A stretch of 64,000 bases of DNA from an uncultured Clostridia bacterium (GCA_944386645.1 CALXBW010000005.1:8639-72638), one strand, 5' to 3'. Positions 85 to 19,094 are shown, counted from the first letter of the stretch. Notes: generated by a model from the sequence alone, not told the origin. Translations and numbers: made by a program.

Positions 85-435
85 ATGGGAATTTTAGATA
101 GATATTTACTAAAGAGAGATAACATATTAAGAAAAAAGATAGAAATAGATAATACTCTATATGAAGAAGTTGTTGAATTATCAAAAATATATGAGGCATC
201 TGCAAATAAAATAATTAATATAGCTATTTTAGGATTAATAGAAACCGAAAATGTAAAATTGTATAAAAAACCAGATAATGAAATTTCAGTGTCGCATAGT
301 TTATTAATAAGAGAGGGATTTTATAAAAAATTAGAAGAATTCAGAGAAAAATATGGAATATCAATATATAGATTAGTTAATATAGCCATAAAAAATGTTA
401 TAGATGAAGAAAAAGAGAAGAATGTAAAAGAATAG
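85..435 (+). CDS. hypothetical protein
   Basis: 116-aa ORF with an AAGAGG RBS a few nt upstream of the ATG. No recognisable catalytic motif. Confidence 0.4.
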   Translation: MGILDRYLLKRDNILRKKIEIDNTLYEEVVELSKIYEASANKIINIAILGLIETENVKLYKKPDNEISVSHSLLIREGFYKKLEEFREKYGISIYRLVNIAIKNVIDEEKEKNVKE

Positions 436-443
436 CTCTATAT

Positions 444-899
444 TTATAATACAGAGCCAAGTACTAAAATACCTAAATTATCATTATATATTTTGTTAAA
501 TTGAGATATAGGCAAAGGATTTTCACCTAATCCAGCTTCTATTGTGTATCCTGGTCTATTATATTGGAAAATAAACCAATCTTTATATCCGGCAAATGAA
601 GAACTATAAGGTGTTGTTTCTAATGCATATCCGCTTACTCTTGAAAATTCTTGCCCAATCATTAATGAATCTTTTGGGTTAAAATCTAAATATTTCCAAT
701 ATATAACTTCACCTTGAGTATGATAAGATAATATTAATCTAAAATTATGATTAATAGTGAAATAATATAAGGCTAGAGTTTCTGGTTCTGTTAATGGATT
801 ATATCCAACAAAATCTCTAGGTGCAGGTTTAGTAAATCCTTGTTCATATTTTATTCTTTTAGCTTCTTCCCAATTTGCAGGAAACTGCAAATTTAAATC
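444..899 (-). pseudogene. M14 zinc-peptidase family (gamma-D-glutamyl-diamino-acid endopeptidase, YqgT-like), 3' segment of a split gene
   Basis: Translation reads ..GVDLNLQFPANWEEAK..SYHTQGEVIYW..AGYKDWF.., the C-terminal part of an M14 cell-wall peptidase. It has no own ATG or RBS (the ORF track starts at an internal TTG). It continues segment 6579..7074 across the 5.7-kb island. Confidence 0.8.
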
Positions 900-967
900 T
901 ACACCAGTGGTATTAAAAAAATACCAACCGAAATTAAATAGTTAACAAAATAAATAATTATCTATAT

Positions 968-1006
968 TGCAGAGTATTTCGATATAAAAGAAATATTCTG
1001 CATTTT
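968..1006 (+). terminator. hairpin plus T-run just inside the island-1 left end
   Basis: TGCAGAGTATTTC-n9-GAAATATTCTGCA followed by TTTTT. Confidence 0.4.
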
Positions 1007-1105
1007 TAAATTAAAAGTTTATATGTTAATACACAATAAAATAAAAAATTTTCATTTAATTCCACTAATATATTTTATAAAACTATTAAAAATAATTTAT
1101 ATATA

Positions 1106-1136
1106 TTGTAGTATTTAAGAAAAATAGTGGTATAAT
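1106..1136 (+). promoter_or_regulatory. putative sigma-A promoter of mgtA (extended -10)
   Basis: TTGTAG, a 19-nt spacer ending in TGG, then TATAAT, about 37 nt upstream of the mgtA start. Confidence 0.35.
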
Positions 1137-1173
1137 TTTAAAGTAATTAATTGTTAAACAAGGAGATGGTATT

Positions 1174-3780
1174 TTGGCAAATGCTAAAGAAGAAGTTAAT
1201 GTTAGTAAAATGTATGGTGAAGAATGTACTTTGCCTAGAGATGAATTTATTAAAAAATACAAGGTAAATGAAAATGGTCTTTCTTCTGAAAAAGCAAGCG
1301 AATTAATTAAAAATTTAGGATTAAATGAAATTAAACAAGCAAAACCAAAGAAATGGTATAACTATTTTTTAGAAAGTCTGTTTTCACCATTTAATTGTAT
1401 ATTATTAGGTATTGTTTGTATTCTAATTTATACAGATATCTATTTACCAGAGACACCTAGTTATGCAAATATTATTGTAATTGCAATATTAGTTACAGCA
1501 AGTACACTTCTTGATTTTTTCGAAGAATATCGTTCTAATAAAGCAGCTGAAGAACTAAAAGAAATGGTTGCGACTACAACTACTGTTATACGTGATAATG
1601 AACAAATACAAATACCAATAAATCAAGTAACTTTAGGAGATATTGTTGTGCTTTCTGCAGGTAGTATGATTCCTGCAGATTTAAGACTCATTGAAGCAAA
1701 AGATTTATATGTAGGACAGTCATCATTAACTGGTGAATCTGATAGTGTTCAAAAATTAGTTAACTCAGAAATTTCTATTAATGAAATAGATAATATTTCA
1801 GATTTAGACACTATTTGCTTTATGGGAACAAATGTTATATCTGGAAGTGCAAAAGGTGTAGTTATAAAAATTGCTGATTCAACTTATTTTGGAAAAGTTG
1901 CACATACAATATCTACAGGTAAGCCTAAAACAGCTTTTCAAAAAGGAATCGAAAATATTAGTAAATTGTTAATTCGTTTTATGTTAGCAATGATTCCTCT
2001 AGTATTTCTAATGAATGCATGGAAACATGATATTATAACAGCATTTACATTTGCTGTTGCAATTGCTATTGCAATTACACCACTGCTTTTACCAGTTATT
2101 TTGTCTTCTAGTCTTTCTAAAGGTGCTGTTAGAATGTCTAAGAAGAAAACTATTGTAAAAAAATTAGACTCTATACAAAATTTTGGAGCCATGAACATTC
2201 TTTGTACAGATAAAACAGGTACTTTAACAGAAGATAAAATAGTTCTGGAAAAATATTTGGATATAAATGGACAAGAAGATATTAGAGTACTCAAAAATGC
2301 TTTTTTAAATTCTTATTTTCAAACTGGGTTGAAAGGAAATATAGATGAAGCTGTAATAAAAAGAGGAATTGAAAATAATTTAGAAGAACTTAAAACAAAA
2401 TATAAAAAAGTAGATGAAGTTCCTTTTGATTTTTCACGTAGACGTTTATCAGTTATTATTACTGATGGAAATAGAAAAAGAATGATTACAAAAGGAGCAG
2501 TTGAAGAAATATTAAATATATGTACAACAGTAGAATATAATGGAGAGATTTTACCTATAAAAAAGGATATAAAGGATAATGTTAAAAAAATTAGCAAAAG
2601 CTTAAATGAACAGGGACTAAGGGTAGTAGCTGTATGCAAAAAAGATGAGATTGGTGAAGCTACTCATTTTACTGTTTCAGATGAAAAAAACATGACTCTT
2701 ATAGGATTTATAGGATTTTTAGATCCGCCAAAAGAAACAGCAAAAGAATCAATTGAAAAACTTAATAATGCAGGTATTCGTGTTATTGTTTTAACAGGTG
2801 ATAATGCAGAAGTTACAAGATGTGTATGTAATAAAGTTGGAATAAATTCTAAGAATATAGTTTTGGGAAGTAAATTAGATAAATTGTCAGATATAGCTGT
2901 TTCAAGATTACTTAAGAAAACTAATATATTTGCAAAACTTTCTCCTATCCAAAAAGCAAGAATAGTAAGAATTTTAAAGGAAGACGGGAATGTTGTAGGT
3001 TATATGGGGGATGGTATTAATGATAGTCCTTCTCTTACTAATTCAGATGTTGGTATTTCTGTTGATACAGCAGTTGATATTGCAAAAGAGTCAGCAGATA
3101 TTATACTTTTGGAAAAAGATTTAAATGTTTTACTACATGGTGTTACTGAGGGTAGACGTACTTTTGTAAATTTAATGAAATATATAAAATTATCAACGAG
3201 TTTTAATTTTGGTGAAGTTGTTTCTGTTATTATTGCAAGTGCATTTCTTCCTTTTTTACCAGAAACACCAATACAGTTATTAGTAGAAGGTTTATTATAC
3301 GATTTTGGACAGATGACTTTACCTTTTGATCATGTTGATAAAGAATCTTTAAAAAAACCTAAAAAATTAGATATAAAAAGTTTAAAACGTTTTATGCTAT
3401 TTATGGGACCTATAAGTTCGGTATTTGATATTATAGTATTCATTTCACTTTGGGTAATATTCCAAGTTAGAGATGCTGCAACATTTCAAACAATTTGGTT
3501 TAGTTATAGTATAGTATCAAATTTAATCGGAATGCATATTATAAGAACATCAAAAATACCATTCATACAAAGCAATGCGCATATAGCTGTTTATATTTCA
3601 TCTATTTCATTAATTATAATAGGGTTAGTAGTTCCATTTACAGGTTTAGGTGCAATGATAGGACTTGTTCCAATTGCTGCTCAATATATATTATTAATAT
3701 TTGCAGTTACAATTCTATATTGCTTTGTTGCATTATTTGCTAAAAAGATATATATTAAAAAATATGGTGAATGGATTTAA
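1174..3780 (+). CDS. mgtA: magnesium-translocating P-type ATPase (MgtA-like)
   Basis: 868 aa (TTG start). P-type motifs TGES, CTDKTGTLT, TGDN and GDGINDSPSL are present. The N-terminal and 10-TM layout matches the MgtA/MgtB class. Confidence 0.8.
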   Translation: MANAKEEVNVSKMYGEECTLPRDEFIKKYKVNENGLSSEKASELIKNLGLNEIKQAKPKKWYNYFLESLFSPFNCILLGIVCILIYTDIYLPETPSYANIIVIAILVTASTLLDFFEEYRSNKAAEELKEMVATTTTVIRDNEQIQIPINQVTLGDIVVLSAGSMIPADLRLIEAKDLYVGQSSLTGESDSVQKLVNSEISINEIDNISDLDTICFMGTNVISGSAKGVVIKIADSTYFGKVAHTISTGKPKTAFQKGIENISKLLIRFMLAMIPLVFLMNAWKHDIITAFTFAVAIAIAITPLLLPVILSSSLSKGAVRMSKKKTIVKKLDSIQNFGAMNILCTDKTGTLTEDKIVLEKYLDINGQEDIRVLKNAFLNSYFQTGLKGNIDEAVIKRGIENNLEELKTKYKKVDEVPFDFSRRRLSVIITDGNRKRMITKGAVEEILNICTTVEYNGEILPIKKDIKDNVKKISKSLNEQGLRVVAVCKKDEIGEATHFTVSDEKNMTLIGFIGFLDPPKETAKESIEKLNNAGIRVIVLTGDNAEVTRCVCNKVGINSKNIVLGSKLDKLSDIAVSRLLKKTNIFAKLSPIQKARIVRILKEDGNVVGYMGDGINDSPSLTNSDVGISVDTAVDIAKESADIILLEKDLNVLLHGVTEGRRTFVNLMKYIKLSTSFNFGEVVSVIIASAFLPFLPETPIQLLVEGLLYDFGQMTLPFDHVDKESLKKPKKLDIKSLKRFMLFMGPISSVFDIIVFISLWVIFQVRDAATFQTIWFSYSIVSNLIGMHIIRTSKIPFIQSNAHIAVYISSISLIIIGLVVPFTGLGAMIGLVPIAAQYILLIFAVTILYCFVALFAKKIYIKKYGEWI

Positions 3781-3796
3781 TTAAAAAATATATTTT

Positions 3797-3838
3797 GAAG
3801 AGGTAGTTTCTATTATAGAATGCCTCTTTAATTTTTTT
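3797..3838 (+). terminator. rho-independent terminator after mgtA
   Basis: GAAGAGGTA..TGCCTCTT stem followed by a T-run. Confidence 0.45.
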
Positions 3839-3906
3839 GCCATATACATTATTTAAAACTCAAATTATATATATAACTAAAAAATTTATAATGTAGTTAT
3901 AAAAAA

Positions 3907-4110
3907 TTGTATTTCTTAATATATTCTGTATTATATATAATAAAATTAAGAGTGAAAGAAGTTGATACAGTTATGGACGATAAAAAGAAGAATACAAAAG
4001 AAAATAAACTAAAATTTAATACATATTATATATTTACAGAAGAAAAAAGAAATGTGAAAGAAACAATAGGACTAATTTTTAAAGATTATCTAGAAAATTT
4101 AAAAACATAA
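3907..4110 (+). CDS. small hypothetical protein upstream of the recombinase
   Basis: 67-aa ORF. An internal ATG at 3973 (MDDKKKNTKEN..) may be the real start. No motif recognised. Confidence 0.3.
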   Translation: MYFLIYSVLYIIKLRVKEVDTVMDDKKKNTKENKLKFNTYYIFTEEKRNVKETIGLIFKDYLENLKT

Positions 4111-4192
4111 ATTAAGTAATTATTAAAGAATAAGCAAAATATTTTTGGAAACTTTGTGATTTAAATATAAAAGATTACTAATAGGAGGGAAA

Positions 4193-5826
4193 ATGCTAGG
4201 TTTAAGAAATCGAGAATTTAGAGTGCGGAATGTATATACGATTATCTAGAGAAGATGGAGATAAGAAAGAAAGCGAGAGTATCAGTAATCAAAGAAATAT
4301 TTTGCAAAGATATATAAAGGAAAATAAATTAAATTTTATAAAAGAATATGTTGATGATGGTGTATCTGGAACAACATTTGATAGACCTGGTTTTAAAGAA
4401 ATGATACAAGATATCGAAGATCAAAATATCAATATGGTTATAACTAAAGATTTATCAAGATTAGGAAGAGATTATATAAAAACTGGTTTTTATATAGAAG
4501 ATTATTTTCCTAAAAACAATATAAGATATGTTGCAATAACAGATGGTATAGATACATATTTTGATAGTACAAACAATGATATAACACCTTTTAAAGCAAT
4601 TATGAATGATATGTATGCTAAAGATATTTCAAAAAAAATTAGAAGTGTTTATAAAGAAAAACAAAAACAAGGAGAATATCTTTGTAGTACGGCTGCTTAT
4701 GGATATAAAAAGCATCCTAGTATTAAGAATAAACTTGTAGTAGATAATAAAGTAAAAAGTGTTATAGAAAAGATTTTTGATATGTATTCAAATGGACATG
4801 GAAGTAGTGAAATTGTTAACTACTTAAATAACAACAAATATTTATCACCATTGGGTTACAGAAAAACAGGAATAGTACAAGACGAAAACAAGACAGGATA
4901 TAACTGGAATGAAGTAACACTATGCAATATGTTAAAAAATGAGGTGTATATTGGAAATACAGTGCAAAATAAAAATTCAGTTATATCGTATAAAGTAAAA
5001 AAAGTAATAAATGTGGAAAAGAAAGAGCAAATAAGGGTAGATAACACTCATGAAGCTATTATTGATAAAGATGTATTTGGAAAAGTACAATGTATTTTAG
5101 AAAAAAGAGGTACAAATACAAAACTCAAATATGACTACTTATTGCGAGGATTACTTTACTGTTATCACTGCAAAAGAAAATTACAAATAGTATTTAAAAA
5201 GAATTCTAAAAGAAGTTCAAAAGCATATTTATATATAACTTGTAGTAATTCAAAAGCAAGAAGATGTTATCCACTTAATATAAATTATGAAAAATTTGAA
5301 AAATATATTATTTACATCGTAAAAAAGATATGCAGAAAATATGCTGATAAAGAAATTTTTACGAGTGTTTATGAAAAAAATAAAAATAAAACTCTTGATA
5401 TAATAGAAAGACATAAGATAAAAATTGAACATATAGATAAAGAAATATTTGAAATAAACAATAATTTAGATAAGATGTATATGGATAAATTAAAAGGGGT
5501 TTTGCAAGAGCAAGATTATATTAGAGTTTCTCGGAAAGTTTAATTATGAAAGAAAAAAATTAAATGAACAAAAGAAAGAATTAGAAGAAAAACTAAATCA
5601 AACAGAGGAAAAAGGAAGGTTTAAAAATTTAGAAAGAAACCAAAAAGAATTAGATGAAGTAATAGAAGAATTTATAAAATTAGAAAAAATTGATAAAATC
5701 TATTTATATCGATTAATTAACAAAATTGAAATAGATAAAGAAAAAAATATATACATATATTTTAATTTCTCAAAACCGAATTTTATTAAGGAGGACCTAA
5801 ATGAATTTTTTAATAATGAAATATAA
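4193..5826 (+). CDS. large serine recombinase, reading frame interrupted twice (longest intact ORF 4230..5543)
   Basis: Resolvase motifs YIRLSREDGD and ..DLSRLGRD.. are present, plus a recombinase domain, a Cys-rich zinc ribbon (CYHCKRKL..C) and a coiled-coil tail. The RBS-equipped ATG at 4193 and the C-terminal 97 codons (5533-5826) lie in other frames. They connect by +1 shifts at CGG 4226 and CGG 5532. Confidence 0.85.
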
Positions 5827-5918
5827 CAAAAAACTAGATAAAGTTTGTATAAAACATTGAATGTATCATAAAATAATGATAAAATTATGATAATATAATG
5901 AAAGGAAGCGAATAAGTT

Positions 5919-6206
5919 ATGATTAATATAAGACCAGTATCAGATTTAAGAAATAAATATCCAGAAATAGAGGAATTAGTTTTAAAAGAAGATAAAGCAG
6001 TTTATCTAACAAAAAATGGATATGGTTCAATGGTAGTAATGAGTTTAGAAAAATATTCAAAATTAATGAGTGATGCAGAATATAATGAATACATTGAAAA
6101 TGCACTAGATGAGGCTGAAAAAGAACTAGATGATCCTAATACAAAATACTATACTCATGAGGAAATGATGAAAATGGCAAGGGAGGTAATTGATGGAAAA
6201 AAATAA
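5919..6206 (+). CDS. type II antitoxin, Phd/YefM family
   Basis: 95 aa. The N-terminus MINIRPVSDLRNKYPEIEELV..VYLTKNGYG..VVMSLEKY is typical of Phd/YefM. It overlaps the toxin gene by 17 nt. Confidence 0.75.
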   Translation: MINIRPVSDLRNKYPEIEELVLKEDKAVYLTKNGYGSMVVMSLEKYSKLMSDAEYNEYIENALDEAEKELDDPNTKYYTHEEMMKMAREVIDGKK

Positions 6207-6507
6207 TTATAAAATTATATATCTTCCTTCCTATATTGAAGATTTAATGGGTGTTTTAAATTACATTACATATAATTTGCAAAATCCTAAGGCGTCAGAA
6301 ATATTGCTAAATAAAATTAATGAAGCAATAAATAAACGAAGTTTAAGTCCACTAGGTTACGAAAAATATAACCGAGCTAGAAACAGTAAATATATATGGT
6401 ATCGAATTTATATAGAAAATTATACTGTTTTCTATACAGTTATAGAAGATACCATGGAAATAGTACGTATATTAAGTAGCAAAAGAAATTTTGATAAATT
6501 AATTTAA
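6190..6507 (+). CDS. type II toxin, RelE/ParE family
   Basis: 105 aa. It is translationally coupled to the upstream antitoxin and has a ParE/RelE-like C-terminus (..TVFYTVIEDTMEIVRILSSKR). Confidence 0.7.
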   Translation: MMEKNNYKIIYLPSYIEDLMGVLNYITYNLQNPKASEILLNKINEAINKRSLSPLGYEKYNRARNSKYIWYRIYIENYTVFYTVIEDTMEIVRILSSKRNFDKLI

Positions 6508-6578
6508 AATTCAAAACGCAAAGTCGTGTAATCTAATAATAGTTACAAGACTTTGCAAAATGGTTGGTAGTTTTTAAA

Positions 6579-7074
6579 ATCCACACCTCTTATATTTGCT
6601 TTCCAACCACTAGGGAAAGGGTATAGAAGGAAATGAATTTGCAATGTTTTGTACTCTATTAAAAATTATACTGTCTTTTGAAATATCTCCATTAACAAGA
6701 TTAACACCATCAGGATTTACCATAGGGCAAATATATATTGAAGAATATGAGAAAATATTTCTAGCAGGAATACCGAATATAATATCATTATTAGAATATG
6801 CAATCGAAATATCTTCAATAAATTTCATTAATACAACAGAAGTAATCCACTCATTAGCATGAATAGAAGCACTATAAAAGACCTCATTTTCTCCATTTCC
6901 AAATCTGATACAAGGAATACGTTTTCCAAGTACAGATGTACCTATATTAAAAACTTCCAAAAAAGGATATAAATTTTTAAGAGAAGTTATATTTTGTTCC
7001 ATAATTGAATATGTATATTTAACATTAGTAGGCACAATAGAATTATTTCTATAAAGATGTTTATAAGAATCCAT
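6579..7074 (-). pseudogene. M14 zinc-peptidase, 5' segment of the split gene
   Basis: It carries the Zn-binding motif HANEWIT and ..CPMVNPDGV... The 0 frame ends at TAG 6610-6612. The conserved [11 protein letters not shown] continues in the +1 frame (6611-6579) up to the island junction. Confidence 0.8.
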
Positions 7075-7276
7075 AAAAAACCTCCATTTAAACTAAAAGA
7101 ACTTATAAAATTTAATAAAAATCAAATAAATTGCAAAAATTAAAAAATATTTATCCACAATAAGTTTTATATATAATAAATATTATATGATAAAGGTACT
7201 AGAAAGTGACATAAAAGCCAAAAAAGATTTAATCCTTTTTGACTAAACAAACATATATATTTAACAGGTTAAAAAG

Positions 7277-7561
7277 TTAATCTATATAATTTTCAAAAGA
7301 ACTGTGAATAACATTATATTCATTATAAGGATTAATTTTTCGAGGATAAGGTTGTTGAATATCTGTTATCCCTAGTAAATAATCAATTGAAGTATTATAA
7401 TAATATGATAGATTAATTAAGATTTTAGTGGGGATGTCATTTTCGCCTGTTTCATATTTAGAATAGCCGGTTTGAGATATATTTAATATACTAGCTATTT
7501 TTTTTTGAGTTAAGTCATTATTCACTCTCAAAGATCGTATTCTTATAAATTTATTATTCAT
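7277..7561 (-). CDS. XRE-family HTH transcriptional regulator
   Basis: 94 aa with the HTH LTQKKIASILNISQTGYSKYETGENDIP. It is divergent from the sortase operon. Confidence 0.8.
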   Translation of the reverse strand: MNNKFIRIRSLRVNNDLTQKKIASILNISQTGYSKYETGENDIPTKILINLSYYYNTSIDYLLGITDIQQPYPRKINPYNEYNVIHSSFENYID

Positions 7562-7838: not shown

Positions 7839-8513
7839 GTGAATATAGGAAAATTGGAAAGGGTTGCTTATCAGAAGGCAAGAAGAGCAGTAGTAAAAAA
7901 CAAAAAGGGTAAAATAGTATTTATTTTAATATTCGTATTAATCTTAGCTATAGTAGGAGGTTTCTTTGTTTACAATTCATATAGTAATAATGAAGAACCT
8001 AGTGAAGAATATGTAAATACAAGCATTCTGGTTGAAGGTGCAATACAAGATATGAATGTATTGGGAGCTATGCATCAAGAAGATGTTGTAGAAGAATCAA
8101 ACATACCAGATGAAGTTAATGGATTTAAAGTTTTAGGCCAAATAGTTATGGAAAAAATCGATGTTACACAAAATATTTTAAGTAAAACTAATAGTAAATC
8201 TTTACAATCAGGAGTAACCAAATTTTATCCACCAGATCTAAAACTAAATGAACCAGGAAACTTTTGTATTGCAGGGCACAATTGGAAGAGTAAATTAAAA
8301 AGATTAAATGAAATGGAAATAGGTGATTTATTTTATATAATTGATAAAGAAACAAATAGCAAAGTATATTACAAAATATATGATAAATACACATGTAATC
8401 CTAGTGATTTATCTTGTTTAGATCAAAACAATAATGGGAAAAGAGAAGTAACTCTAATAACCTGTAATCCAGGAGGTTTAACCAGATTAATTTGTAAGGC
8501 TAGAGAAGTATAA
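7839..8513 (+). CDS. sortase-family transpeptidase
   Basis: 224 aa with an N-terminal TM segment, the His motif CIAGHN and the catalytic TLITC motif (EVTLITCNPGG). The exact start is uncertain (GTG abuts the RBS). Confidence 0.8.
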   Translation: MNIGKLERVAYQKARRAVVKNKKGKIVFILIFVLILAIVGGFFVYNSYSNNEEPSEEYVNTSILVEGAIQDMNVLGAMHQEDVVEESNIPDEVNGFKVLGQIVMEKIDVTQNILSKTNSKSLQSGVTKFYPPDLKLNEPGNFCIAGHNWKSKLKRLNEMEIGDLFYIIDKETNSKVYYKIYDKYTCNPSDLSCLDQNNNGKREVTLITCNPGGLTRLICKAREV

Positions 8514-8586
8514 TTAATAGAGCTAAGTCTATCTAGAACGAAAAATATTAGTATATGTACATAAAATATCAGAAGATAAGAAAGGA

Positions 8587-9285
8587 ATGTTTAAAATGTT
8601 AAAAATGAAAAATATAATGTTAAGTTTAATCGCGAGTTTAATAATAATAGGATTTGGAGCAACACAAGTTATGGCAGCAGAATTAGGAGCAAATAATACA
8701 GAAGTTAATGTAGGTGATCAAGTAGAAGTTACAGTTAAATTAACAGATGCAACAAGAGCTGTTGATTTAGTATTAAATTATGATAGTAATGCTTTTGAAT
8801 TTGTATCAGTTTCAGCAGGTTTAGGAGGAGCATATAATGCTAAAGAACCAGGTGTTGTAAGAATATCAGAAGCTAATGCAAATGTTACAACAAATGAAGT
8901 TAAATATGTATTTACAGCTAAAGCTGTAACAGATGAAAATACAGAAGCTTTCACAGCTAGTGGTTTAGTAACAGAAGGTGGAGAAGAATTAACAGTTGAT
9001 TCAGTAAGTGTTAAAGTTGTAGAACCAGTTGTTGATCCAGATCCAGAAACACCAGTTGATCCAGAACAACCAACAGATCCAGAACAACCAGATTTAAATG
9101 AACCAGCTGATGACAATAATCAAGAAGAACCAACAAATAATGATAACAATAATGAAAAAGTAGATGAAGATGGAAACAAAATAACAAAATTACCACAAAC
9201 AGGTGTATCTATATTAAATGTTTTAGCAATAGTAGCAGTTGCTGGAGTAGCTGTTTTTGGAATTAGAAAATTTATAAAGAAATAA
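8587..9285 (+). CDS. LPXTG-anchored surface protein with a cohesin-like domain
   Basis: It has a signal peptide and a cohesin-like block (VNVGDQVEVTVKL..VDLVLNYDSNAFEFVSVSAG). A P/D/E/T-rich linker follows, then LPQTG, a hydrophobic stretch and an RKFIKK tail. Confidence 0.7.
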   Translation: MFKMLKMKNIMLSLIASLIIIGFGATQVMAAELGANNTEVNVGDQVEVTVKLTDATRAVDLVLNYDSNAFEFVSVSAGLGGAYNAKEPGVVRISEANANVTTNEVKYVFTAKAVTDENTEAFTASGLVTEGGEELTVDSVSVKVVEPVVDPDPETPVDPEQPTDPEQPDLNEPADDNNQEEPTNNDNNNEKVDEDGNKITKLPQTGVSILNVLAIVAVAGVAVFGIRKFIKK

Positions 9286-9311
9286 TTATTATACGTTAGG
9301 GGGAAAAAAAG

Positions 9312-12300
9312 GTGAATAAGAAATTAAAAATAGTATCATCAATAGCTTTAGCTGGAATGTTAGTAACAAGTAGTTTTGGAGTAGGTAAAGTATTCGCAGA
9401 TTCAACAAGCGATTATATTACTAATCCAGTAGGAATATATAATAAATTAGTACAAGGAAAATCTGTAGTTCCTTATGTATTAGCAAATAAAGATGATAAA
9501 TTAACAGTAAAAGATGTTACAGATAGTGATTTATTTAAAGGAAATGTTAGTACAGTAGATGGAACAGCTGTTACAGATCAAACTAAATTAGTAGGTACAG
9601 GAGATGTTATAAAAACAACAGATGGTAAAGAATATACAGTAGTTCTATACGGAGATGTAGATGACAATGGAACAGTTACAGGTATGGATGCATTAAGAAT
9701 ATTAGATGCAAGTGCTGGTAATGTTACATTAACAGATGTTGAAAGAGAAGCATCAGATGTAGAAAATGATGGTAACTTAAACTCTTTAGATGCATTAGCT
9801 GTACAAGAATTTGTTGTAGGTTTAAATGATAGCGTTATAAATAAATTACCAGAAGCAGAGGAAGAAGTTGTAGATTCTAATTATACTTTTTCAATAAAAG
9901 ATGCACAATATGTAAACTCTGTTAATCAAAATGCTGTAACATTAAAAGTAGATTTAGATGAAGTATTAACTGAAGACACAAAATTTAGTTTGATATTTAG
10001 TGGTAATAAAGATGGAGAACCATATGAGATAACAGATAAAACTATTAAAATAGAGAAAAACCTTGTAAGTAAAGAAAAGAAAAATCCAATTGATTTATCA
10101 AGTTTTGATGATGGCATAATAACATTAACAATGAAAGAGTTAGATGAAGAAGGAAACGTAATAGATAATGTAGTAGGACAATACAAAATGGAAAAAAATA
10201 CAGTATTACCAGAAGCTACTAATGTAAGGACAGATCGTACAAGTACAAAATCTGCTACATTATCATTAGAAGCATGTGGTGATAGTGATATAGTAAAAGT
10301 ACATTACTTAGTAAGTACTACTGAGCCATCATCAGAAGACGAATTAGTTAAAACAATAGATGTAACAGGCAACAAAGTATCTAACTATACTATAACAAAT
10401 GATTTAACAACTAATGCAGCTTCTAAAGTTTGGTATGTTTTAGAAAATTCATATGGAAGTAAATCAGAAATGACTTCTGCAGTTATCACAAAAGATGATA
10501 ACACAGTAACAACACCAGAAGCAGTAGAAGAAGTTGTAGCACCAGATTTAACAAAGAGTGCAGTAGCTGATTTTACTTGGACTGGTGTTAATGGAGCAAA
10601 TTATGTTGCAACATTATATAAAGATGGAAAACCAGTATCAGTTGCAACAAGTAGTAATGGAATAACAAGCTCTGGAACAAACTTCACAGCAACTTTTACA
10701 GACAAAATGAAAGAAGCTGGAACATACAAAGTAGAAGTATATCAAGAAGCTACTGATGATTCAAAAGCATCTGCTTCAACACCTTCAGCAGAAGTAAAAG
10801 TTGAAAAATTATCAGCAGTGACAGACTTACAATTCAGAAATGAAGATGGAAAGGTTATGTTATATTGGGAAAATGCTAATGCAAATGGAAGTTTTAAAGA
10901 TTATAACATTCAGTTATATACTATAGACAAAGATGGAAAAGAAGTTAAAGATGACAAAGTAACTTTAGATGATAATACAAAAACTGAAGTCGAAGTAACA
11001 AGCAATATTGATAATAATGTTATTTACATCGCAAAAGTAACAGTAAATGCAGATAACTCAAATCAAATGGCTATGATTAATTCTGATGAAGTAACATCAG
11101 CTCAATTCTATAAGGTAGGAACACCTAAAATAGATTCAACTGAAATATCAGAGCATGAAATAACATTAAATGTTACAGGTGTTAACATTAATGGAAAAAC
11201 TACAACATACAAAGTAAAAGTATTTGATGTAAATTCAAATCCAGAAGTAGCAAATTTAGTACTAAAAGATACTAAAGATGTTGAAATTAAAGATGGAAAA
11301 ATAGTTATAGATGGATTAGAAAGCAACAAACCATATGCATTTAAACTAATAGCAATTGTAGATGGTGAAGAAGTAGAATCTGACTATACAGCTAAAACAA
11401 TAGATGATGCTGTATACACTCTACCAGAATTAAAGAACTTAACTGTAGTTGCCACAGAAGAAGAAGCGAAAGAATCTGGTAAAGTTTATTCAGTTGATGC
11501 TGATACAATTAAAATAGCTGGAGAAAAAGAAGGAGAATTAACAACAATTGATTTAGCAGATTATAATAATAGCACAAGACTTGCTAATTCACTAAAAGTA
11601 ATAAACAAATTAAAAGCAGGTGATGTCGTTACAATAGAAAACAATAAAATCACATTAAAACTAGATGGCGGTGCATCAGTATCTTCTGATCAATTTAGAG
11701 ATTTCTCTGAACTTACAGATTTAAAAGATGTTGTTTTTGATATCGAAAACAATGGATACAGCAAAACAATTAAAACACCAACAGAAGGTGTAAAAGAAGT
11801 AATACTAAGGGGTACAGACTCTTTATTCAATACAGAGGAAGTTAATGCAGAAAAAATTACATTAACAGATGGTGTTGAAGTAACAGGTGATAAAGCTTAT
11901 ACAATTGAAAGTGGAGCTACAGTTACAATAAACGGTGTAATAATAACAACAAGTAATGAAATGGAATTATCAGCAAATGGTAAAGATTTAGATGTAACAG
12001 TAAGTGGAGGATCATCAAATAATGTAGTATTCGAAAATTCAACAGAGGGAGATGCTGTAATTGCATTCGTAGGTGATGATACATTTACAGCAGAACAAGC
12101 AGGAACAATCACAATAAAATCAGAAGGTGGAAAAGTAACTGTAGATTCTACTAATGTAAATGTAAGTGCAGATATCAAAGTTGAAGTTAACAAAGGAACA
12201 GTTAATATACAAAATCCAGCTTTAACAGGAGATAAAGAAGTATCTGTATCTGCTGATAAAAATAACAAAGTAACAATAGAAGCTGTTTCAAAAACAGATG

Positions 12301-12524
12301 CACCTGAAGCTTTAGTAGGTGAAACATTTGAATTAAAAGAATATACTGATGAGGAAATAAAAGATAAATTTGGTGTACAAGATCAAGATGTAGTAATAGC
12401 AATTGATGAATATATCAGTTCTTTTGGTTTAAATGATAAAGGTGCAACAATGACTGTTGGAAATGATAACAAAGTTTCTATAGAATTTACAGGATCTGTT
12501 GACAAAATAGAAAACTTAAAATAA
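9312..12524 (+). CDS. large secreted protein with an N-proximal dockerin module and repeated Ig/FN3-like domains
   Basis: 1070 aa with a signal peptide. Two Ca-binding dockerin repeats are present: GDVDDNGTVTGMDALRIL and SDVENDGNLNSLDALAVQEFV (about nt 9645-9840). The rest is T/V/K/E-rich beta-type repeats. Confidence 0.7.
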   Translation: MNKKLKIVSSIALAGMLVTSSFGVGKVFADSTSDYITNPVGIYNKLVQGKSVVPYVLANKDDKLTVKDVTDSDLFKGNVSTVDGTAVTDQTKLVGTGDVIKTTDGKEYTVVLYGDVDDNGTVTGMDALRILDASAGNVTLTDVEREASDVENDGNLNSLDALAVQEFVVGLNDSVINKLPEAEEEVVDSNYTFSIKDAQYVNSVNQNAVTLKVDLDEVLTEDTKFSLIFSGNKDGEPYEITDKTIKIEKNLVSKEKKNPIDLSSFDDGIITLTMKELDEEGNVIDNVVGQYKMEKNTVLPEATNVRTDRTSTKSATLSLEACGDSDIVKVHYLVSTTEPSSEDELVKTIDVTGNKVSNYTITNDLTTNAASKVWYVLENSYGSKSEMTSAVITKDDNTVTTPEAVEEVVAPDLTKSAVADFTWTGVNGANYVATLYKDGKPVSVATSSNGITSSGTNFTATFTDKMKEAGTYKVEVYQEATDDSKASASTPSAEVKVEKLSAVTDLQFRNEDGKVMLYWENANANGSFKDYNIQLYTIDKDGKEVKDDKVTLDDNTKTEVEVTSNIDNNVIYIAKVTVNADNSNQMAMINSDEVTSAQFYKVGTPKIDSTEISEHEITLNVTGVNINGKTTTYKVKVFDVNSNPEVANLVLKDTKDVEIKDGKIVIDGLESNKPYAFKLIAIVDGEEVESDYTAKTIDDAVYTLPELKNLTVVATEEEAKESGKVYSVDADTIKIAGEKEGELTTIDLADYNNSTRLANSLKVINKLKAGDVVTIENNKITLKLDGGASVSSDQFRDFSELTDLKDVVFDIENNGYSKTIKTPTEGVKEVILRGTDSLFNTEEVNAEKITLTDGVEVTGDKAYTIESGATVTINGVIITTSNEMELSANGKDLDVTVSGGSSNNVVFENSTEGDAVIAFVGDDTFTAEQAGTITIKSEGGKVTVDSTNVNVSADIKVEVNKGTVNIQNPALTGDKEVSVSADKNNKVTIEAVSKTDAPEALVGETFELKEYTDEEIKDKFGVQDQDVVIAIDEYISSFGLNDKGATMTVGNDNKVSIEFTGSVDKIENLK

Positions 12525-14508: not shown

Positions 14509-15087
14509 ATGTTAAATATAATATGGCCATTTTTCATTATTATATCAATTATATATGCTATACTTACTGGAAAAGTTGTGGAAGTGAATAATTCTGTATT
14601 TGAATCAGCAAATGAAACTGTGAAATTAACAATTACTTTTTTTGGTACAATTTGTTTATGGAATGGAATAATTCATATAGCATCAAAAACAACTATGATT
14701 GAAAAATTAACAAACAAATTAGGTCCAATAATTAAATTCTTATTTCCAGATTTAAAAAAAGAAAAAGAAGTTCAAAAAGAAATATCCATGAATGTTGTAG
14801 CTAATATGCTAGGACTAGGAAATGCTGCAACACCATTGGGTTTAAAAGCAATGAAATCATTGCAAAAGTTAAATGATAATAAAGACAGACTTTCGAATTC
14901 TATGGCAATGTTTATTGTTTTAAATACAGCATCATTGCAAATTATACCAACAACAGTAATTGCTATAAGAAATTCACTTGGTTCACAAAATGCTAGTGAA
15001 ATTATAATTCCTGTTTGGATATCTACGGTAATTGCAGCAGTGACTGTAGTTATTGTAACAAAATTATTTATAAAATTCTGGAAATAG
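14509..15087 (+). CDS. spmA: spore maturation protein A (nucleoside-recognition domain membrane protein)
   Basis: 192 aa. It has a Gate/nucleoside-recognition-type membrane pattern and is paired with spmB 9 nt downstream. Confidence 0.75.
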   Translation: MLNIIWPFFIIISIIYAILTGKVVEVNNSVFESANETVKLTITFFGTICLWNGIIHIASKTTMIEKLTNKLGPIIKFLFPDLKKEKEVQKEISMNVVANMLGLGNAATPLGLKAMKSLQKLNDNKDRLSNSMAMFIVLNTASLQIIPTTVIAIRNSLGSQNASEIIIPVWISTVIAAVTVVIVTKLFIKFWK

Positions 15088-15096
15088 GGAGGAATT

Positions 15097-15624
15097 ATGG
15101 CTTTTGTAAATTATTTATCAACTATAGCAGTTCCTGTAATTATTTTATTAGTAATTGCGTATGGTGCTGTAGAAAAAATAAAAGTATTTGATACATTTAT
15201 AGATGGAGTAAAAGAAGGAATTCAAATAGTAATAGGAATATTTCCAACATTAATGGGACTCTTTTTAGCAATAACATTGTTAAGAGAATCAGGAGTTTTA
15301 GAATTAGTAGTTAATCTTTTAACACCAATTACAAGTCTTTTTAATATACCAAAAGAGATAATGCCACTTGCTATATTAAGACCAATTTCAGGAAGTGCAT
15401 CAATGGCAGTTGCTACTGATATTATGAGTCAATATGGGACAGATACTATAATAGGATTAATAACATCAACATTAATGGGTTCTACAGAAACTACACTATA
15501 TACAATTGCTATTTATACAGGTATAGTAAAAATAAAAAAAATAAGATTTGTATTAATTGCTGCATTAATAGGTGATTTTATTGGAATGGTTGCATCTGTT
15601 GGAATTTGGAGATTTTTGTCGTAA
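15097..15624 (+). CDS. spmB: spore maturation protein B
   Basis: 175 aa membrane protein with the motif ..LRPISGSASMAVA... Conserved spmA-spmB tandem. Confidence 0.75.
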   Translation: MAFVNYLSTIAVPVIILLVIAYGAVEKIKVFDTFIDGVKEGIQIVIGIFPTLMGLFLAITLLRESGVLELVVNLLTPITSLFNIPKEIMPLAILRPISGSASMAVATDIMSQYGTDTIIGLITSTLMGSTETTLYTIAIYTGIVKIKKIRFVLIAALIGDFIGMVASVGIWRFLS

Positions 15625-18425: not shown

Positions 18426-19094
18426 TTACTTATTTGAAGATATTGCTATACCTATATTTTGTAACATTTCTACAATTTTAAATTTCAATTTAATATCTTC
18501 AGATTCATTATCAGATATAAGAGTATATTCTTCAGAATCTAAGTTTTCTTTTAGATTTTCTTTTGATTCAGTAGGTACAATTCCAGATGATATGTCCACG
18601 AAACAAAGAGGAGGGAACATTACACACCACCAATTTTGTCCTTCAGCTTTTCCAATTTTAACTCTTAATGCATCATAAAATCCAGCAGGTAAAGAAATAT
18701 CTCCATACGTTTTTGTAGGAAAAGAAAAGTTTCCAATTTCAACTTCTACATTATAATCATAACCATTTTCAATAATAGTTTTTTTGGCAATATCATTAAT
18801 TTCATCTAAATTTATATTTTCAATTAGTTCTTCTTTAGTTTTTGCAATTTTTCCTAATTCATTTACATGTTCTATAATTTTATCCCTAACAATATATTTC
18901 AAATTTTGATCTTCTGTAGAATCACTATTTGCAATAACATGTAATCTAAAAACACTATTTGATAAATTTGCAGAAACGGCACTAACATATGAAATTGCCG
19001 AAACTAGTATAAAGAAAAATATTAATGTAGCTAATAAAGAAAAATATTTCAATTTTTTAAAATTATTTTTTAACTTGTTCACACTAACCTCCAT
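18426..19094 (-). CDS. spoIIR: stage II sporulation protein R
   Basis: 222 aa with a signal/TM segment and the motifs RLHVIANSDSTEDQNLKYIVRDKI and NWWCVMFPPLCF. Confidence 0.85.
   Translation of the reverse strand: MEVSVNKLKNNFKKLKYFSLLATLIFFFILVSAISYVSAVSANLSNSVFRLHVIANSDSTEDQNLKYIVRDKIIEHVNELGKIAKTKEELIENINLDEINDIAKKTIIENGYDYNVEVEIGNFSFPTKTYGDISLPAGFYDALRVKIGKAEGQNWWCVMFPPLCFVDISSGIVPTESKENLKENLDSEEYTLISDNESEDIKLKFKIVEMLQNIGIAISSNK

Follow-up and report, generated by a model that had tools for sequence, protein, structure and literature searches.

Why should a conserved cell-wall peptidase gene of an uncultured Clostridia bacterium be encoded in two pieces, with a 5.7-kb serine-recombinase island lying between them? 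The locus is part of a stretch of 64,000 nucleotides (hereafter the window; GCA_944386645.1 CALXBW010000005.1:8639-72638), and a sequence-only reading had likened it to skin, the element that interrupts sigK and is cut out in the mother cell to rebuild the host gene. The follow-up analysis described here indicates that the island belongs to a family of non-phage integrative islands which probably undergo a skin-like excision in the mother cell, rebuilding an M14 gene of the yqgT/endopeptidase-I type, and that the window copy itself is degenerating. Judged from sequence, this is the best available explanation for the family.

Translations and Pfam matches placed both parts of the gene on the minus strand, as had been reported. 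The N-terminal half (codons 1-165) occupies 6586-7074, its open reading frame (ORF) starting at 7074, and the C-terminal half (codons ~166-315) occupies 444-903, from ...GVDLNLQFPANWEE... through the stop, with the C-terminal 150 residues (DLNLQFPANWEE… through the stop) encoded by 899-444. Joined, the halves form a 315-residue protein (predicted rejoined sequence ...AAGAGGTGTAGATTTAAATTTGCAG...) that covers positions 1-283 of 286 of Pfam Peptidase_M14 in a single stretch. The peptidase is of the M14, gamma-D-Glu-mDAP type, and homologues at 67% identity are annotated as 'g-D-glutamyl-meso-diaminopimelate peptidase' (JGI). The join also creates the block GWKANxxGVDLNLQFP, which is contiguous in uninterrupted homologues at both the DNA and the protein level, bearing out the earlier claim of a seamless conserved block. 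Comparison with uninterrupted relatives, the route that had been proposed for defining attB, found the same DNA contiguous in seven other species (GGxTGGAAAGCAAA…GGTGTxGATTTAAATTTxCAATTTCC). A PDB sequence search with the peptidase returned only distant carboxypeptidases and was hence uninformative about orthology to YqgT/ENP1.

That the two fragments are separate, independently conserved genes, or that the split is an assembly chimera, has a practically negligible probability. Gene callers do list the fragments as separate ORFs (154/176 and 148 amino acids), but the C-terminal half has no conserved start codon (TTG in the window, read-through elsewhere) and identical junctions recur in dozens of independent samples. 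Nor is the split an assembly artefact, for more than 100 contigs, drawn from many independent metagenome samples, show it. The separate-gene or chimera account is already refuted by the uninterrupted homologues, which contain the joined sequence contiguously, and by the Pfam M14 model, which is covered once, end to end, by the join alone.

The junctions have the sequence anatomy of genuine serine-recombinase att sites. The left, attL-like junction (895-929) consists of the core AAATCTACACC (895-905), with a predicted crossover at CC (904-905; GG on the coding strand), followed by the island-side arm AGTGGTATTAAAAAAATACCAACC (906-929). The right, attR-like junction (6562-6587) consists of an island-side inverted-repeat arm GGTTGGTAGTTTTTAAAATCCAC (6562-6584) and the core AAATCCACACC (6577-6587), with the predicted crossover CC at 6586-6587. 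The shared cores read AAATC[T/C]ACACC and lie 5,682 bp apart. The junction sequences and shared core given by the sequence-only reading proved exact, and the second short match that it had noted beside them, GGTTGG/CCAACC, is present at 6562 and 924 within the island and at 6603 in the host.

Joining the island ends at the CC reconstructs an attP of 50 bp, a length typical for a large serine recombinase, which reads GGTTGGTAGTTTTTAAAATCCACA-CC-AGTGGTATTAAAAAAATACCAACC and has imperfect inverted arms of 23 bp. This imperfect palindrome is symmetric at 20/30 positions, which ranks in the top 0.07% when random 62-mers are drawn from the window. The dyad is centred on GG in the Gly codon of G-V-D, where crossover is predicted, and the predicted circle junction is ...GGTTGGTAGTTTTTAAAATCCACACCAGTGGTATTAAAAAAATACCAACC....

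Two features of the coding sequence at the island ends are of note. The end adjoining the C-terminal half (906-945, read on the minus strand) encodes FGWYFFNTTGVD, mimicking the host sequence that it replaces, and the same is seen in the related loci L004, L020, L031 and L034; the mimicry arises because the attP arm resembles the attB arm (GGTTGG…). At the other end, the N-terminal peptidase fragment continues for 11 codons into the island, with a conserved tail …KNYQPF(C/Y)KVL and then a stop.

The N-terminal part of the large serine recombinase (449/437 codons) lies at 4194-5543 on the plus strand. It has the YIRLSRED serine motif and all three Pfam domains of this enzyme class (Resolvase, Recombinase and Zn_ribbon_recom), and its catalytic domain is closest to that of TnpX (2MHC, 104 bits). 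Directly upstream is a conserved small ORF (3973-4110, plus strand) of 45 residues in the window, 48 in relatives and 47 in L065. It was found in every sampled element with that region on its contig (the window, L009, L034, L035, L036, L065, L066 and L067). No Pfam or NCBIfam family matched it, and PHROGs gave nothing for the window's 45-residue form and one weak match for a 48-residue relative (phrog_11748, E 0.006). The small ORF is a candidate recombination directionality factor or regulator. A 16-nt block, ATATTCTGTATTA.AT, lies ~30-45 nt upstream of it (window 3920-3945) and is invariant in five otherwise diverged elements (the window, L034, L035, L036 and L009; alignment columns ~225-245). 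The block may be a promoter or operator, and it fits none of the sigma consensus patterns tried.

Exact-protein look-up traced the peptidase fragments, the recombinase and the toxin-antitoxin genes to more than 100 contigs, the C-terminal peptidase fragment being present on many of them. Diverged hosts carry this element at one and the same site. L001 matches over 9 kb at 93% identity, with its right end diverged, and L009 carries the same island plus an AAA_21/RloB pair. In L019/L020, a metagenome-assembled genome (MAG), the peptidase is 87-90% identical and split at the same codon, mgtA is in a different position and the recombinase is intact at 80% identity; L031, a mouse-gut MAG, has a C-terminal half at 67% identity and the same attP arm. 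Intact recombinase homologues at 77-83% identity were flanked by M14 fragments in five of the six sampled (L034, L035, L065, L066 and L067), and the recombinase family includes hundreds of protein clusters in this identity range.

Unrelated recombinases have reached the same gene. The one in L030 (41% identity) is inserted at the same peptidase residue, and that in L032 (27% identity; 10186-11827) lies after residue ~73, within the zinc-binding motif, between SIHA and NEW, which by sequence makes this gene family a target at a second, independent site. The C-terminal halves of L004 and L008 are identical and their island ends differ, which points to turnover at the site. L035 (11668-11760) and L036 (2378-2470) have an identical recombinase (P0252) and share an island end up to …AAAATCTACACC, beyond which L035 continues into the N-terminal peptidase half and L036 into unrelated DNA; the L036 junction may be a secondary insertion site or a rearrangement. 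Taken together, these loci constitute a large, apparently undescribed family of islands that target this peptidase gene in spore-forming gut Clostridia.

The interrupted gene shows strong constraint. Among insertion-carrying lineages, the ratio of nonsynonymous to synonymous substitution rates (dN/dS) was 0.06-0.14 for the N-terminal half, at synonymous divergence (dS) up to 0.54, and 0.07-0.13 for the C-terminal half at dS up to 0.90 (Fisher p 1e-5 to 1e-20); for mgtA it was 0.05-0.07 between islands. Between the window and L019, dS was 0.49 (mgtA), 0.58 (recombinase) and 0.54 (N-terminal peptidase half), and this similar divergence of island and flank suggests long co-residence. Among 5.8 billion proteins no uninterrupted protein exceeded 72% identity to the joined sequence, against more than 100 contigs with the split gene, and all peptidase alleles recorded there for the window's clade and its nearest relatives are interrupted. 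The constrained halves and the co-divergence are the strongest argument, an indirect one, that the peptidase gene may be periodically rebuilt.

The host is an endospore former, since the window encodes SpoIIR (18426-19094, minus strand; TIGR02837, 168 bits, cut-off 152) and two Gate-domain proteins (14509-15624, plus strand) which we take to resemble SpmA/SpmB. Neighbours at related loci include SpoVT_C, Coat_F, YtfJ and SpoVS. Upstream of the peptidase, ~107 nt before its ATG, lies a sigmaK-type promoter motif, AC-N16-CATATAATA (7181-7207, minus strand), which fits the B. subtilis sigmaK consensus, AC-N16/17-CATAnnnTA. The motif is kept in L019 despite a different spacer and also precedes the distant homologues L034, L015 and L023. 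Of 21 loci, 5 have it, where ~0.01 would be expected per 200 nt (P ~6e-5, counting four independent hits). In B. subtilis, yqgT is in a list of the sigmaE regulon (PMC3416734), and peptidase I of B. sphaericus, a gamma-D-glutamyl-meso-DAP (diaminopimelate) enzyme, is called 'sporulation-related' in a reference cited in PMC3310797.

These observations can be accommodated in a single mechanism. A TnpX-like family of large serine recombinases is dedicated to one attB, at the codons ...GWKANxxG and VDLNLQFP... of an M14 gene that is probably expressed in the mother cell during sporulation. The island would stay integrated in vegetative cells and in the forespore, as do skin, SPbeta or gin. In the terminal mother cell, the recombinase would recombine attL with attR at the GG dinucleotide, probably assisted by the 45-48-residue protein from the ORF just upstream. 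Excision would release a circle and rebuild the peptidase gene, which would then be transcribed from the sigmaK-type promoter, and cargo would ride along, namely MgtA and Phd/ParE in the window and defence genes elsewhere. The spore-forming host, the sigmaK-type motif, the listing of yqgT in the sigmaE regulon, the constrained halves, the missing empty site and the several recombinase lineages all favour this skin-like reading.

Support for it is only partial, because no sporulation promoter was found for the recombinase or the candidate directionality factor and because the N-terminal peptidase half and the recombinase of the window are frameshifted. Of the skin-like architecture proposed earlier, the placement of a large serine recombinase island precisely within a conserved codon block, with typical attL and attR sites, has stood. 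Several observations, in the family at large and in the reading frames of the window copy, weigh against mother-cell excision. A strict search of the island for sigmaE and sigmaK motifs gave none before the recombinase or before the small ORF; the single sigmaE-like match, at 5847 before phd, fits the sigma-70 pattern too. Neither a reconstituted gene nor a circular junction was seen in any collection of assembled contigs or proteins. Elements turn over at the peptidase site, and the Phd/ParE pair alone could explain the absence of empty sites. Between the window and L009, dS is 0.01 for mgtA but 0.21 for the N-terminal peptidase half, reflecting mosaic recombination between islands and flanks, which weakens the timing argument for selection.

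The peptidase frame adds to these points. The insertion had been described as in-frame, which does not hold for the window, where one extra base breaks the N-terminal half and three frame-breaking mutations are present overall. The ORF from 7074 ends at a TAG (6610-6612; …PSIPFP, then stop) after 154 residues, and the next conserved residues are encoded at 6611-6579 in a different frame. The cause is a +1 change in a CCC run at ~6611-6621, where sister contigs read TCT ATT CCT TTC CCT AGT GGT TGG and the window reads TCT ATA CCC TTT CCC TAG. Related contigs encode an unbroken N-terminal fragment of 176 residues. The frameshifted form of 154 residues recurs in at least 10 independent metagenome samples from two series (ONAT22-1 and BRZ), which rules out an assembly error and identifies the frameshift as a real allele of a sub-lineage. 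Rejoining would give an intact ORF of 315 residues in the sister contigs; in the window the rejoined ORF would stay broken at ~6611-6621. Excision of the window copy, if it still occurs, would leave no intact ORF, the N-terminal half and the recombinase being frameshifted. This copy is most likely a decaying or fixed remnant, and in the window strain the gene can probably not be restored any more and the island has probably become fixed. Other single peptidase frameshifts were found in L035 (11696-12176, a split gene) and L028 (10476-10504, an uninterrupted one), which hints that the gene is dispensable in some lineages.

Both recombinase breaks, near 4225 and at 5538, had been missed in the sequence-only reading. 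An extra C near 4225 (GTG C GGA ATG, against GTT GGA ATG in L009) puts the ATG at 4194, which has the ribosome-binding site AGGAGGG, out of frame. What remains is an in-frame ORF of 437 codons (4230-5543) with no clear ribosome-binding site, so that the window recombinase lacks a start linked to one; the 437-residue form is present on 7 contigs, and sister contigs encode an in-frame recombinase of 449 residues. An extra G at 5538 (TCT CGG AAA G TTT AAT) detaches the last 95 codons (feature 5538-5826, plus strand; codons 5539-5823, stop 5824-5826), which encode the second half of the coiled-coil and the C-terminal strands. Intact relatives have 541-555 residues and are unbroken through …DYIRVSQKLKFE… (...SQKLKFE...). 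Sequence pattern and these relatives place the break, at codon 447, in the first helix of the coiled-coil. Large serine recombinases are single polypeptides of ~450-700 residues that combine a resolvase catalytic domain bearing the nucleophilic Ser, a recombinase domain and a zinc ribbon with an embedded coiled-coil, and in the window copy the frameshift at 5538 interrupts this polypeptide; by sequence, this is a large serine recombinase by descent whose product is truncated. The coiled-coil break is common to all islands of the window's clade and occurs in L031 too. Within the clade, the N-terminal part of the recombinase evolves at dN/dS up to ~0.3, still purifying (p below 1e-3), and the detached C-terminus at 0.66, indistinguishable from neutral (p=0.32).

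The break in the coiled-coil might alternatively be a working state, with infrequent +1 recoding at the rare CGG codon metering the full-length enzyme or with the 449-residue form acting as an excision-only enzyme that lacks the coiled-coil. Such a form would be domesticated, would need no directionality factor and could not re-integrate. We hold a working state, this domesticated form included, to be improbable. It fits the selection on the N-terminal part, a downstream frame that is open in all copies, the constrained peptidase halves and data on LI integrase, which without its coiled-coil loses control of integration and gives weak attL x attR products independently of a directionality factor (PMC5499577). 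By analogy, it is conceivable that the truncated recombinase is still able to excise. L031 has the same TCTCGGxAAx context at its frame break, and dN/dS between the detached C-termini of the window and L031 was 0.30 at dS 0.97. The L031 recombinase is closer to intact proteins (85%) than to that of the window (77%), so recombination may have spread the frameshift patch that the two have in common, and a claim of programmed frameshifting based on window-L031 conservation was weakened accordingly and cannot be upheld.

With separate genes and a chimera set aside, two other accounts compete with developmental excision. The locus could hold an ordinary integrative island for which conserved coding sequence serves as attB, and which inactivates a dispensable peptidase and is kept by its cargo and Phd/ParE, with no developmental excision and with the halves as young pseudogenes. 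The three frame-breaking lesions of the window and the frameshifted peptidases of L035 and L028 fit this account, as do a recombinase from the TnpX-like clade of transposon enzymes, island ends that turn over at identical host alleles (L004 and L008) and the failure of the motif search to find a sporulation promoter for the recombinase and small ORF. The toxin-antitoxin pair can account for 100% occupancy, but relatives without the pair (L034 and L067) are inserted there too. Young pseudogenes are also hard to reconcile with a dN/dS of ~0.1 for both halves across insertion-carrying lineages at dS up to 0.9, with the similar divergence of island and host genes, or with the lack of any empty site for the clade in the 5.8 billion-protein search, and three or more recombinase lineages have targeted the gene, a pattern typical of genes of the mother cell. 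We regard an ordinary island as rather unlikely.

Excision could also respond to a cue other than sporulation, the island being a reversible vegetative switch of the active-lysogeny or phage-regulatory-switch type that turns the peptidase on. The architecture and selection evidence would be the same as under mother-cell excision, the search found no sporulation promoter on the recombinase, and the yin element is excised heterogeneously in all growth phases (PMC10747680). However, a sigmaK-type motif lies upstream of the target gene, all sampled hosts appear to be spore formers (SpoIIR; Coat_F, YtfJ and SpoVS neighbours), and frequent switching should leave some empty or reconstituted sites, none of which was present among more than 100 metagenomic contigs. 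A vegetative switch is thus, in our judgement, very improbable.

The reading proposed here, mother-cell excision, has precedents. The closest non-phage one is gin, the element within gerE of Bacillus cereus ATCC 10987 (Abe et al. 2017, PMC5595907). Neither gin nor the present island contains phage or conjugation genes, and on the reading proposed here each splits a coding sequence that the mother cell uses in sporulation. In each, a small accessory gene adjoins a large serine recombinase, and a short common core sits between the arms of an imperfect inverted repeat. They differ in target (gerE against an M14 peptidase), in size (28.6 kb against 5.7 kb) and in the number of recombinases (three against one). 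The present island, in addition, has MgtA and Phd/ParE as cargo and a frameshifted recombinase, resides in uncultured gut Clostridia and is known here from sequence alone. As with skin in sigK (SpoIVCA in B. subtilis; CD1231 with CD1234 in C. difficile, PMC5025042) and SPbeta in spsM (PMC4191935, PMC5499854), attL x attR excision by a large serine recombinase would restore an interrupted gene for which only the terminal mother cell has a use; the lineage carries the element in an essentially fixed state, and the target halves stay under selection. Those elements, however, are (defective) prophages, 14-134 kb long, whose targets are regulatory or polysaccharide genes and whose sporulation-controlled recombinases or directionality factors have been demonstrated by experiment, whereas the present island has no phage genes and splits a gene for a cell-wall hydrolase.

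The yin element in yabG of Clostridium botulinum (PMC10747680) is likewise clostridial, interrupts a sigmaK-dependent sporulation protease gene and has a putative small directionality factor. It is a prophage unique to one strain, whereas the present family is non-phage and widespread among many species. TnpX, the closest solved catalytic-domain relative, is a clostridial large serine recombinase that moves small cargo elements (Tn4451/Tn4453). Elements of the Tn4451 family bring a mobilisation gene with them and insert at many sites that contain GA, whereas the present family lacks a mob gene and keeps to a single site, within a coding sequence. Genes named as interrupted by excisable elements are sigK, spsM, spoVFB, spoVR, gerE and yabG (PMC10747680, PMC5595907, PMC4191935), and a full-text literature search for yqgT found no paper on intervening elements.

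The cargo of the window island comprises an MgtA-type Mg2+ P-type ATPase (1174-3780, plus strand; TIGR01524, 1001.6 bits against a cut-off of 610.75, model positions 3-867 of 867) and a toxin-antitoxin pair on the plus strand. The Phd/YefM antitoxin (5919-6206; PF02604, 38.8 bits against 29.8) precedes the ParE toxin (6190-6507; PF05016, 32.2 bits against 23), with PHROGs as further evidence for the pair. The order and the overlap at 6190-6206 fit the definition of a type II Phd/YefM-ParE system. Profiles thus upheld the gene list of the sequence-only reading (MgtA, small ORF, large serine recombinase, Phd and ParE); the promoter and flanking terminators that it had assigned to mgtA found no support in a sigma-70 and terminator scan of 400-7400, which was uninformative, with fewer promoter-like matches than in shuffled sequence. 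An Rfam scan of the whole window gave tRNAs only, with no M-box or other riboswitch before mgtA. As had been claimed, the island has no phage or conjugation genes detectable with Pfam, NCBIfam or PHROGs. A tblastn search with the recombinase against 50,697 phage records found nothing above 45% identity, and in IMG/VR its relatives were at most 49% identical and none adjoined a peptidase fragment. A recent prophage origin is therefore not supported.

Elsewhere in the family, the islands of L034, L035, L065, L066 and L067 include restriction-modification, AAA_21/RloB, NUDIX and sigma-factor-like genes. Defence cargo stands instead of or alongside mgtA in L009 (13329-15201), L034 (6566-8438), L035 (5571-7440) and L067 (1692-3534), including AAA_21 and RloB pairs and an NgoPII-type restriction-modification system. 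On the host side of the window, an ORF of 116 residues adjoins the C-terminal peptidase half (85-435, plus strand); it has weak similarity to Arc-like repressors (PHROGs, E=2.6e-5) and is conserved there in all relatives. Beside the peptidase locus, 7839-12524 (plus strand) contains a sortase gene followed by genes for a 232-residue Pro/Glu-rich wall-anchored protein, with weak cohesin similarity, and a 1,070-residue protein with weak dockerin/fn3 similarity, and looks like a surface-display cluster.

If the skin-like reading is true, a cell-wall peptidase of the yqgT/endopeptidase-I type joins the list of interrupted sporulation genes, and the phenomenon would be common in uncultured gut Clostridia. 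The elements are small and of non-phage type, and the adaptive cargo that they carry includes a Mg2+ pump, restriction-modification genes, toxin-antitoxin pairs and, for defence, AAA_21/RloB pairs. The family is a source of natural attB/attP pairs for a new serine integrase, and the states of its recombinases, intact, truncated and decayed, are a natural series in which the fixation and the death of such elements can be studied.

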